Below, in pieces: positions 17,453 to 18,920 of a DNA stretch of 41,104 nucleotides (within the stretch, counting starts at the first letter, position 1; each line of letters begins with the position of its first letter). Below the pieces are notes generated by a model. It was not told where the DNA came from. It made no database searches and saw only the letters and a program-made list of their open reading frames with translations. The position numbers and the translations under genes are program-made. This DNA comes from a virus (taxonomy: Duplodnaviria > Heunggongvirae > Uroviricota > Caudoviricetes): the IMG/VR virus record IMGVR_UViG_2617270992_000014. One strand, given 5' to 3'.

Positions 17453-17845
17453 ATGTCTGAACCCTTATCCGGTTCCGGCACGGCTGCGGCGCTCGGCGGG
17501 GCGACGGTATTCGGGCTGTTTACCGGAACGGATTTCGGGATTGTGTTTGGTGCGTTCGCCGGGGCGTTATTTGTGGCAACGATGCCGCAGAAGATTTCAG
17601 CCTGGCGTGTGGCGGCACATTTTCTGGTGTCGTTCATTGTTGGTGTACTGGGGGCGCGTGTACTGTCAGCCTGGATTGCATCAAAAACAGGTTATGACGG
17701 TGCACCTGTTGACGCATTGTGTGCAGTACTGGTGTCAGTGGTGGCGGTGAAGATTCTGTCATTCATCCACCAGCAGGATATTGCATCACTGGTGTCCGGC
17801 CTGTTCTCCCGTCTGCGTGGCGGAGGAGGCGGCAATGTTAAGTAA
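17453..17845 (+). CDS. Putative holin (multi-TMD membrane protein)
   Basis: AGGAG 7 nt upstream of the ATG at 17453; about 130 aa with Gly/Ala-rich hydrophobic segments; first gene of the lysis cluster directly upstream of the endolysin. Confidence 0.55.
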   Translation: MSEPLSGSGTAAALGGATVFGLFTGTDFGIVFGAFAGALFVATMPQKISAWRVAAHFLVSFIVGVLGARVLSAWIASKTGYDGAPVDALCAVLVSVVAVKILSFIHQQDIASLVSGLFSRLRGGGGGNVK

Positions 17846-18110
17846 CCTTCCCGGATTGCTGAATGTGGCGTTATGCACGGTTATCGTGCTGACGCTCTTT
17901 TTTTATCGTCGCCGTGACTCCAGACACAAACCGCTGATGTCATGGCTGGCCTGGCTGCTGATGCTGCTTTATGGCTTTGCTCCACTCAGCTATCTGTGTG
18001 GTCGCCCGTTAGCAACGGGCTGGCTGGAAGTGTTTTTTAATCTGTTGTTCTGCGTGCTGGTAATAAGCGCACGCGGGAACGTCGCAAGAATCTTTCCATT
18101 GTTGAGGTGA
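17835..18110 (+). CDS. Second lysis-cassette membrane protein (holin or antiholin-like)
   Basis: About 92 aa with two or three hydrophobic segments; GGAGGAGG upstream; start overlaps the previous stop and its stop overlaps the endolysin start. Confidence 0.5.
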   Translation: MLSNLPGLLNVALCTVIVLTLFFYRRRDSRHKPLMSWLAWLLMLLYGFAPLSYLCGRPLATGWLEVFFNLLFCVLVISARGNVARIFPLLR

Positions 18111-18490
18111 ATATGTCGGGTAAATTCAGATTTAGTCGTCGCAGTGAAAAAAATCTGGAGGGCGTTAAACCACAGCTGGTTGCTGTCGTTCGCCGTGCGC
18201 TGGAACTGACGGAGGTTGATTTTGGTATCACGGAAGGTCTGCGCAGTAAGTATCGCCAGAAACAGCTGGTAGCGGCAGGGAAAAGCCAGACCATGAACAG
18301 CCGCCACCTTACAGGTGATGCGGTGGATGTTGTTGCCTGGGTTGGCAGCCAGGTGTCATGGGACTGGCCTCTGTACGAGAAAATCGCACAGGCATTTAAG
18401 CAGGCTGCCGCAGAGCTGGGGATCGCTATCGAATGGGGCGGGGACTGGAAAACGCTGAAAGACGGACCTCACTTTCAGCTGAAGCGATAA
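18107..18490 (+). CDS. Endolysin, peptidase M15-type (zinc D-Ala-D-Ala carboxypeptidase-like fold)
   Basis: 127-aa ORF; SRHLTGDAVDVVAW, WDW and IEWGGDW...GPHFQL resemble the metal-binding segments of small M15-family phage endolysins as recalled. Confidence 0.7.
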   Translation: MNMSGKFRFSRRSEKNLEGVKPQLVAVVRRALELTEVDFGITEGLRSKYRQKQLVAAGKSQTMNSRHLTGDAVDVVAWVGSQVSWDWPLYEKIAQAFKQAAAELGIAIEWGGDWKTLKDGPHFQLKR

Positions 18491-18499
18491 GTAAAACAA

Positions 18500-18531
18500 A
18501 ACCCCGGCTGGGGGAACAGTCCGGGGTTTTT
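18500..18531 (+). terminator. Intrinsic terminator after the endolysin gene
   Basis: CCCCGG ... CCGGGG stem with a 13-nt loop followed by TTTTTAGTTTT. Confidence 0.5.
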
Positions 18532-18737
18532 AGTTTTCACGTCAAAGGGGAAATTGTGATTAGTGAGTAGGGAGAAAATCCTCGTGGGAAAGTATAAAAG
18601 ATTCTTTTTGAGGTTGTCCATTATGAAAGGTATTGAAATGGAAACTCCCGCGAGCCTTGATTTGACAAGGGCTGCGGCCTTTGCAATTCGCCTTGTGGCG
18701 GTCGCTGTTCTGATTTGGGCTGTGCGTTGGTGGTGAC

Positions 18738-18920
18738 ATGAGCCGAAAACACTGGACACACAGAATGCCGCGAACGGCGGCGAAATGGGCACTGGTAGCG
18801 ATACTGGTGCCTTTTTTATTGGTGGGATGCGTCAGCCTGGATAAGGCGCGCCAGCTTTTCGATACGGCTTCTCAGGTCTGCGAAATTGTTGACGGTGTTC
18901 GGCAGTGTCTGCAGAACTGA
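18738..18920 (+). CDS. Small candidate lipoprotein (possible o-spanin-like or other moron)
   Basis: 60-aa ORF with a hydrophobic N-terminus and lipobox-like LLVGC; mature part about 30 aa with three Cys; preceded by a 37-aa hydrophobic ORF at 18624-18737. Confidence 0.35.
   Translation: MSRKHWTHRMPRTAAKWALVAILVPFLLVGCVSLDKARQLFDTASQVCEIVDGVRQCLQN

Follow-up and report, generated by a model that had tools for sequence, protein, structure and literature searches.

We analyzed a stretch of 41,104 nucleotides (nt), hereafter the window, from a Caudoviricetes record in IMG/VR (IMGVR_UViG_2617270992_000014). The window is a phiP27-like Escherichia coli prophage, and its segment 17300-19100 was 91% identical to the Shiga toxin 2e (Stx2e) phage phiP27 and 94 to 95% identical to prophages of approximately 170 complete E. 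coli genomes. In this segment, two holin-like genes and an endolysin gene are followed by an intrinsic terminator and by two small genes, one for a 37-amino-acid (aa) membrane protein, here named sm37, and the other for a 60-aa prolipoprotein, here named lipo60 (Table 1). A preliminary description of the sequence had noted the lack of a recognizable Rz/Rz1 spanin pair and had proposed that the two small genes were either a minimal spanin equivalent or an unrelated moron. We found that lipo60 belongs to the lysis cassette as an integral and conserved gene, located in the exact position that spanin genes hold in other phages, and we propose that it may disrupt the outer membrane without an inner-membrane spanin (i-spanin).

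The upstream part of the cassette was as previously described. The two membrane proteins matched Phage_holin_8 (87.4 bits; gathering cutoff, 26.4) and Phage_holin_3_7 (80.5 bits; cutoff, 25.4) and are predicted from these matches to be holins, while the endolysin matched Peptidase_M15_4 (48.1 bits; cutoff, 25). The first gene has AGGAG upstream of its ATG, and the second overlaps it by 11 nt. The endolysin gene may begin with a GTG at 18107, overlapping the preceding stop codon by 4 nt (GTGA), or with an ATG at 18113 (125 aa), which would leave a 2-nt gap; the ATG has the better Shine-Dalgarno sequence (GAGG with a 5-nt spacer), is the start chosen by the annotation pipeline PGAP in a relative, and is the likely start codon. 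Under either start the genes are tightly coupled, as had been claimed. The terminator also proved to be where it had been placed, directly after the endolysin gene. Its hairpin was kept together with sm37 in the GER2, STEC1575, and SC407 relatives, and a terminator hairpin likewise lies upstream of sm37 in a Yersinia locus (L295). Regarding the small genes, the lipoprotein open reading frame (ORF) at 18738-18920 had been located exactly, but the 37-aa ORF had been placed one base off (18624-18737 instead of 18623-18736).

Table 1. Features of the lysis region of the window and the late regulator upstream of it
Feature	Position	Strand	Match or property
Q-like late antiterminator	15067..15762	+	phrog_304 "anti-termination protein Q-like," E 1e-104
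Phage_holin_8 family membrane protein, 130 aa; first holin-like gene	17453..17845	+	Pfam PF16931, E 1e-24; phrog_198 holin, E 7e-43
Phage_holin_3_7 family membrane protein with three transmembrane domains, 91 aa; second holin-like gene	17835..18110	+	Pfam PF05449, E 9e-23; phrog_217 holin, E 2e-38
M15-family peptidase endolysin, neither signal nor signal-arrest-release (SAR) sequence	18107..18490	+	Pfam Peptidase_M15_4, E 1.8e-12; phrog_465 endolysin, E 5e-75
Intrinsic terminator, hairpin and U-run, in the gap between endolysin and small genes	18491..18540	+	-24.1 kcal/mol, z = -5.15; 0/200 shuffles fold as well
sm37, 37-aa small membrane protein with a single C-terminal transmembrane domain	18623..18736	+	phrog_4493, E 2e-16
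lipo60, 60-aa prolipoprotein in the spanin slot	18738..18920	+	phrog_7528, E 4e-38; lipobox LVGC

The lipo60 gene is a real gene under purifying selection, with ratios of nonsynonymous to synonymous substitution rates (dN/dS) of 0.22 to 0.43 versus the Yersinia and Citrobacter copies. It was present in 317 of 5426 complete E. coli genomes (approximately 6%). The family fell into 160 clusters when grouped at 90% identity and into 22 when grouped at 50%, all of its members were approximately 54 to 66 aa long, and every member with a named source came from Enterobacterales. The protein begins with a 30-aa signal peptide that has a long basic n-region and is, in family alignments, the most conserved part of the sequence. 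The lipobox was invariant in the family save for one sequence and ends in Cys31, the predicted site of lipidation (codon 18828-18830); the residue at position +2 was V, A, T, S, G, or E and never Asp, and lipo60 is thus predicted by the +2 rule to be sorted to the outer membrane. No hydrophobic segment follows Cys31. The mature part, of approximately 29 aa, carries two invariant cysteines (C48 and C57) in the consensus C-x-S-L-x-K-A-R-x-(L/W)-(F/L)-x-x-A-x-x-V-C-x8/9-C. It has a net charge of -1 and a hydrophobic moment (muH) of about 0.35 to 0.5, which makes it only moderately amphipathic. AlphaFold2 (AF2) predicted, at a low confidence (pLDDT 67), a helix and then a beta-hairpin in which C48 and C57 come close to each other. 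Since the number of residues between these cysteines varies in the family (8 or 9), a loop is favored over a fixed helical register.

Two further observations concern this gene. An 11-bp hairpin followed by U6 lies within the signal-peptide codons (18787..18812, plus strand) as a terminator-like match; it was kept in 19 of 19 variants of the segment among 63 distinct alleles, with energies of -11 to -19 kcal/mol, and could be an internal attenuator or a by-product of conserved hydrophobic codons. Additionally, the record PP818812.1 (Actinobacillus phage vB_Apl-pPE4, labelled A. pleuropneumoniae) had approximately 90% DNA identity to this lysis region, with a lipo60 98% identical to that of the window, and its host assignment looks questionable.

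The ancestry of lipo60 differed between its two parts. The signal peptide, with its motif HW[ST]HRxPRxx[AS]KW, was homologous to that of a LysC-type outer-membrane spanin (o-spanin) family (hhalign, 96.6%; E 5e-10); a pairwise comparison was also made. The mature part was unrelated to the LysC-type family in a profile comparison (0.2%), and lipo60 was likewise unrelated to the overlapped o-spanin family (hhalign, 15%). The idea that lipo60 is a truncated o-spanin was rejected for the mature domain on these values and accepted for the signal peptide only, and from its sequence lipo60 seems to combine the leader of an o-spanin with a short mature domain that is novel. Neither sm37 nor lipo60 had a match in Pfam, NCBIfam, or PADLOC, and in PHROGs both fell into families of unknown function only (phrog_4493 and phrog_7528). 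The preliminary description had suggested a search of the small pair with spanin-specific profiles; this gave no spanin-family match, with lipo60 matching none of Pfam Phage_lysis, LysC, and DUF2570 or the PHROG "Rz-like spanin" families, and only its signal peptide was LysC-like. A search of PDB sequences with the lipo60 family profile gave chance matches only.

The absence of an Rz/Rz1 pair was confirmed in the window, and no canonical spanin turned up elsewhere in the prophage. A six-frame lipobox scan of the window found only lipo60 and an unrelated 130-aa lipoprotein (12752-13144), and a scan of the window for ORFs with a single N-terminal transmembrane domain (TMD) found no type II protein with a periplasmic domain. 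This second scan yielded spurious ORFs and two ORFs, one for a Hok-like toxin and one for a Lom-like outer-membrane protein, that were discarded as unrelated. A 60-aa membrane ORF in the gap between the terminase and portal genes (22202-22384) was considered as a distant i-spanin and rejected as a two-TMD hairpin with no periplasmic domain. The complete phiP27 genome had no canonical spanin either, its only lipoproteins being lipo60 and a 275-aa lipoprotein of the early region, and a mosaic prophage of strain SC407, which has the same lysis region and a different structural module, had no annotated spanin. We also considered a cysteine in the holin loops as the partner of the lipo60 cysteines, and this idea was dropped because the holin cysteine is inconsistent among lipo60 cassettes (e.g., in the metagenome locus L293).

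We then compared the position of lipo60 among phages, using 80 IMG/VR loci recovered through lipo60. In all of them, as far as the contig reached, lipo60 lay 3' of Phage_holin_8 (Hol8), Phage_holin_3_7 (Hol3_7), and an endolysin of either the M15 or the GH108 type. In a Yersinia enterocolitica locus (L087) the order was Q, then Hol8-Hol3_7-GH108 endolysin-lipo60, with a 4-nt overlap between the endolysin gene and lipo60, no terminator, and no sm37. In Citrobacter braakii (L090) lipo60 starts 15 nt past the M15 gene, and in L293 it starts 6 nt past it; a profile scan of genome contigs with the Hol3_7 alignment recovered one locus, that of Citrobacter braakii. The holin pairs linked to lipo60 in the window, Yersinia, and L293 were only 21 to 34% identical to one another and represent three holin lineages with two endolysin types, whereas lipo60 itself was 58 to 77% identical across these contexts. 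The holins of the window were closer to those of a clade that carries spanins (42 to 52%).

No other o-spanin-like lipoprotein was found within approximately 4 kb of lipo60 in any of 85 lipo60 loci; the only other lipoprotein was Bor, in 8 loci. Loci with Hol8/Hol3_7 and no lipo60 presented the opposite picture: 68 of 80 had an overlapped i-/o-spanin pair directly after the endolysin gene (phrog_1026 and phrog_1275, "Rz-like spanin"), and one more (L156) had a pair of the LysB/LysC type (Pfam LysC, E 1.4e-16), which brings the loci with a canonical pair to 69 of 80. About half of the remaining loci were on truncated contigs. The naive Fisher P value for this exclusivity (4e-36) is greatly overstated by shared descent. 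Both the M15 and the GH108 endolysins were also found together with canonical spanins, and the endolysin is therefore not the replacement for the spanin.

A natural swap was seen between two nearly isogenic prophage loci that differ at the spanin slot only. The Y. enterocolitica loci L087 and L295 have Hol8, Hol3_7, and GH108 proteins that are 94%, 96%, and 95% identical, respectively, and their DNA homology stops at the endolysin stop codon, after which L087 has lipo60 and L295 has a terminator, sm37, and Rz with an embedded proline-rich Rz1. The slot was also flanked on both sides in another comparison, with the order endolysin-lipo60-72-aa ORF in L293 and endolysin-LysB/LysC-67-aa ORF in L156, where the downstream ORFs were 67% identical. 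These belong to a conserved acidic ORF of 67 to 83 aa (VLTAEQI...EYTGLIAYS...) that follows lipo60 or LysB/LysC in L293 (5176-5394), L294 (481-732), and L156 (5430-5633). In the GER2 lineage the gene order was S-R-sm37-Rz/Rz1-ais(-)-lipo60, and the lipo60 copy was a pseudogene with three in-frame stop codons (4303-4500 in phage GER2, L003; also in L192, L218, L220, L224, L253, and L283). The pseudogene is identical in six loci and thus represents one event, and the lineage in which lipo60 had decayed is the one where Rz/Rz1 is placed between sm37 and lipo60. Together, lipo60 is an integral and conserved member of the lysis cassette in the exact spanin position of other phages, which is at odds with its earlier description as a possible unrelated moron.

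The sm37 gene is also real and under purifying selection. In comparison with the copy of the Stx phage GER2 it had 19.5 synonymous and 5.5 nonsynonymous differences, all conservative (dN/dS, 0.03), and its exact sequence was found on at least 1000 contigs with a 57-aa extended-ORF query. A search with a degenerate DNA pattern yielded 120 IMG/VR loci, approximately 55 with the lambdoid order S-R-sm37-Rz and approximately 65 with the order Hol8-Hol3_7-(M15 or GH108)-sm37-lipo60, and in all 120 sm37 was placed between the endolysin gene and either Rz or lipo60. All 110 intact copies had a TGAnATG junction with the next gene, which was Rz in 46 and lipo60 in 64. Because sm37 precedes Rz, itself an i-spanin, about as often as it precedes lipo60, and with the same junction, it is not an i-spanin. 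The earlier proposal of a minimal spanin pair was not supported: sm37 has a C-terminal TMD only, stands before Rz/Rz1 in approximately 45% of cases, and is missing from many lipo60 cassettes, including those of phiP27, Yersinia L087, Citrobacter L090, and L293. Judged by its sequence and gene order, the description that suits sm37 best is that of a small, conserved inner-membrane protein accessory to outer-membrane lysis genes. In phage PhiR5_1 (L292, 1346-1560), two tandem small ORFs with TMDs lie before Rz, a 28-aa variant of sm37 and an upstream paralogue (RALAFAIKWVAVGIAV...), which points to a broader family of such proteins 5' of Rz.

The view that the terminator marks the end of the cassette was not supported. 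Terminator-like hairpins with U-runs lie 3' of the Q gene at 15829-15844, 16629-16648, 17412-17427, and approximately 18500. The one at 15829-15844, directly 3' of Q and with U7, resembles lambda tR', and the presence of several hairpins between Q and the holin genes fits a Q-antiterminated late operon. In lambdoid phages, Q-modified late transcripts pass through such terminators, and by analogy Q may make the downstream terminators leaky for late transcripts in this prophage. We found neither a plus-strand promoter-like site upstream of the small genes nor a terminator downstream of them; with Q located upstream, sm37 and lipo60 probably belong to the late transcript. In relatives, moreover, lipo60 overlaps the endolysin stop codon with no terminator in between.

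A literature search found no paper testing lipo60 or sm37, but lipo60 is not a new object, as it had already been catalogued as an o-spanin. In the survey of Kongari et al. 2018 (PMC6139136), phiP27 is listed with a "separated" two-component spanin consisting of an i-spanin at 20348-20542 (64 aa, 32 periplasmic residues) and an o-spanin at 20706-20861 (51 aa, 30 periplasmic residues, 83% helix). The o-spanin entry is the same gene as lipo60. The pair was the shortest in the survey (62 periplasmic residues), both members were singletons, and the entry is a bioinformatic listing. The 64-aa "i-spanin" is an ORF with a TTG start and no PHROG match, and it is antisense to a 90-aa ORF (phrog_36812, E 5e-20) that sits in place of sm37 on the minus strand (L002, 2829-3101; 20332-20604 of the record). 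It is absent from the window, where the sm37 segment replaces the whole of that segment. From these features, the published phiP27 "i-spanin" is probably an artefact. The same survey lists 31 genomes with a lipoprotein and no linked i-spanin, and it suggests that other topologies may occur; approximately 13% of phages had no identifiable spanin.

When lipo60 is held against the features of a two-component spanin used by Kongari et al. 2018, it has a lipobox with an outer-membrane sorting signal and is located after the endolysin gene in the lysis cassette. It lacks two defining features: there is no linked type II (N-in, C-out) i-spanin, as no partner was conserved across contexts, and the periplasmic length (29 residues plus at most approximately 16 of sm37) is outside the 62 to 300 residues of catalogued spanins. 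Like the o-spanins lambda Rz1 and P2 LysC (Pfam LysC, PF23793), lipo60 is a lipoprotein with a predicted outer-membrane sorting signal and conserved periplasmic cysteines, encoded at the 3' end of a lysis cassette, and it shares the LysC-type signal peptide with its unusual n-region motif. It differs from them in its short mature part, which has no proline-rich linker and no relation to LysC or the overlapped o-spanin family, and it has neither a conserved i-spanin nor a Pfam LysC match. A mature part of approximately 29 aa is too short and therefore cannot bridge the periplasm. The unimolecular spanin T1 gp11 is likewise encoded by one gene in the spanin position and has an N-terminal lipobox; lipo60, however, lacks its C-terminal TMD and has only 29 mature residues.

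Outside the spanins, there was a likeness to the colicin lysis proteins. These bacteriocin release proteins (Lysis_col, PF02402) are very small lipoproteins with mature parts of approximately 27 to 35 aa, are often encoded at the end of an operon after a terminator, and permeabilize the outer membrane without an inner-membrane partner, in a quasi-lysis that depends on OMPLA, with the signal peptide contributing to function. By analogy, lipo60 appears alike in its size, gene position, lack of a partner, and unusually conserved signal peptide. It differs in having no sequence similarity to them (no Pfam-A match at E<=1) and two additional conserved cysteines, and its gene lies in a holin-endolysin cassette whereas theirs lie in toxin-export operons. 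The disruptin of phage phiKT (gp28; bioRxiv 10.1101/515445), the one characterized alternative to a spanin, is also a single small protein that disrupts the outer membrane, encoded in the cassette of a spanin-less coliphage, which is the role predicted for lipo60. gp28 is soluble, strongly cationic, amphipathic, and antimicrobial-peptide-like, whereas lipo60 is predicted to be lipid anchored, with a charge of -1 and a muH of 0.35. For sm37 there is a loose precedent in Lcc6 of the Shewanella phage LambdaSo (bioRxiv 10.1101/2024.01.23.576932), a short single-TMD protein whose gene lies in or near the lysis cassette in addition to the holin, endolysin, and spanin genes; the holin step is where Lcc6 acts, whereas sm37 is linked to outer-membrane genes.

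We propose that lipo60 is the outer-membrane-disruption factor of the cassette and works without an i-spanin, a reading to which we give a probability of about 0.45. It is based on what was observed, namely, the identities of the genes, their conservation and position, the mutual exclusion of lipo60 and spanins, and the lack of a partner; from this we infer the export and sorting of lipo60, its role in outer-membrane disruption, and the following mechanism. From a Q-dependent late lysis cassette, the Phage_holin_8 and Phage_holin_3_7 proteins would permeabilize the inner membrane and release the cytoplasmic M15 peptidase endolysin, which would then degrade the wall. lipo60 would be exported and lipidated at Cys31 and, with Val and not Asp at +2, would be directed by the Lol system to the outer membrane, into its inner leaflet. 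The mature part of lipo60 would consist of a short amphipathic helix and, after it, a loop from Cys48 to Cys57, with no conserved inner-membrane partner, and may destabilize the outer membrane from the inner leaflet, directly or through a host factor. The mode would resemble that of the colicin lysis lipoproteins mechanistically, without common ancestry, and would differ from the membrane fusion proposed for Rz/Rz1. sm37 would be translationally coupled to the outer-membrane gene that follows it, lipo60 or Rz, and could be an accessory or regulatory factor. More tentatively still, lipo60 could represent a new class of outer-membrane disruptors, namely, a single lipoprotein with a mature part of approximately 29 residues, an o-spanin-derived signal peptide, no inner-membrane partner, and too little length to bridge the periplasm, which after the action of holin and endolysin would suffice to rupture the E. 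coli outer membrane, with sm37 as a general accessory of outer-membrane lysis genes.

Several findings weigh against this proposal. The mature part is slightly acidic and only moderately amphipathic, so that a membrane-active peptide is not an obvious reading of it; homology to the colicin lysis proteins is lacking, as is homology to any spanin, and the AF2 model has a low confidence. The exclusivity with spanins is partly inflated by shared descent, with approximately 4 independent contexts rather than 85. Finally, the region from the lysis genes to the terminase genes is a classic site for morons. It is conceivable, though unlikely, that the phage truly lacks a spanin and that lipo60 is a moron or envelope-modifying lipoprotein acting in superinfection exclusion or in serum or host interaction, as with Bor and Cor. 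Small lipoproteins in the gap between lysis and terminase genes are classic morons, with Bor itself in 8 related loci, and lipo60 has no homology to functionally annotated families; it is parted from the endolysin gene by a strong terminator in the window and by a reverse-strand ORF in phiP27, and the survey figure of approximately 13% of phages without an identifiable spanin (PMC6139136) leaves room for a spanin-less phage. Yet lipo60 has neither a promoter-like site upstream nor a terminator downstream, overlaps or adjoins the endolysin gene in other genera, and is not similar to Bor or Cor, and a moron would leave unexplained why spanins are absent where lipo60 is present and are present at that exact site where it is not.

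The two other explanations keep lipo60 within the lysis process. It would be improbable for lipo60 to be a periplasmic regulator of lysis timing, antiholin-like or holin modulating and specific to Hol8/Hol3_7. Its constant position 3' of this holin pair wherever the contig holds the upstream genes fits such a role, and Lcc6 of LambdaSo is a precedent for extra small lysis factors; against this, Hol8/Hol3_7 cassettes work without lipo60 in the spanin-bearing clade, the predicted periplasmic loops of the holins have only about 10 residues, and the divergence of the holins (21 to 34% identity, versus 58 to 77% for lipo60) is not what one would expect of a specific binding partner, while the missing spanin would still be unexplained. 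We consider it highly improbable that a small inner-membrane protein (sm37 or the phiP27 64-aa ORF) and lipo60 bridge and fuse the membranes as a minimal two-component spanin, which is also the view of Kongari et al. 2018. The "separated" listing of the phiP27 pair (PMC6139136), the translational coupling of sm37 to lipo60, and the two conserved periplasmic cysteines, as in many o-spanins, speak for such a pair. It is contradicted by the lack of a conserved partner, with sm37 absent in phiP27, L087, L090, and L293 and the 64-aa TTG ORF antisense to the phrog_36812 ORF, without a PHROG match and absent here; by the genuine Rz that follows sm37 in 46 of 110 intact loci; and by a periplasmic length of at most approximately 16 (sm37) plus approximately 29 (lipo60) residues, far below that of any catalogued pair.

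The surroundings of the cassette contain other small genes that are separate from it. Between the Q region and the holin genes (16790-17364) are the genes of a 141-aa TerB-family protein and a 50-aa DUF3927 protein; phiP27 has stx2eAB at this position, just 5' of the holin genes, i.e., one moron slot with other cargo. Rfam, searched over the whole window, gave sok as the sole match (119 bits) and none in the lysis region; this hok/sok toxin-antitoxin locus is within 12284-13144, with a Hok-like ORF at 12397-12609, and is followed by the 130-aa lipoprotein gene mentioned above (phrog_16082). In the tail region, a 199-aa ORF with a signal peptide (37566-38165) resembles, by eye only, an outer-membrane protein moron of the Lom/Ail type.

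According to the current model, gram-negative phages need a link between the inner and outer membranes (Rz/Rz1 or gp11) or else a cationic peptide (phiKT). That lipo60 takes the place of three spanin families at one locus is supported by comparative evidence that is new and sufficiently strong to warrant experiments. If the proposal is true, an anchored lipopeptide of 29 residues that replaces these families would be a third solution, and bridging of the periplasm would not be required for rupture of the outer membrane. For annotation, sm37 and lipo60 are now "hypothetical proteins" in thousands of records. The lipo60 locus is also found in Shiga toxin phages such as phiP27, and toxin release by Stx2e and Stx2k phages depends on this cassette.

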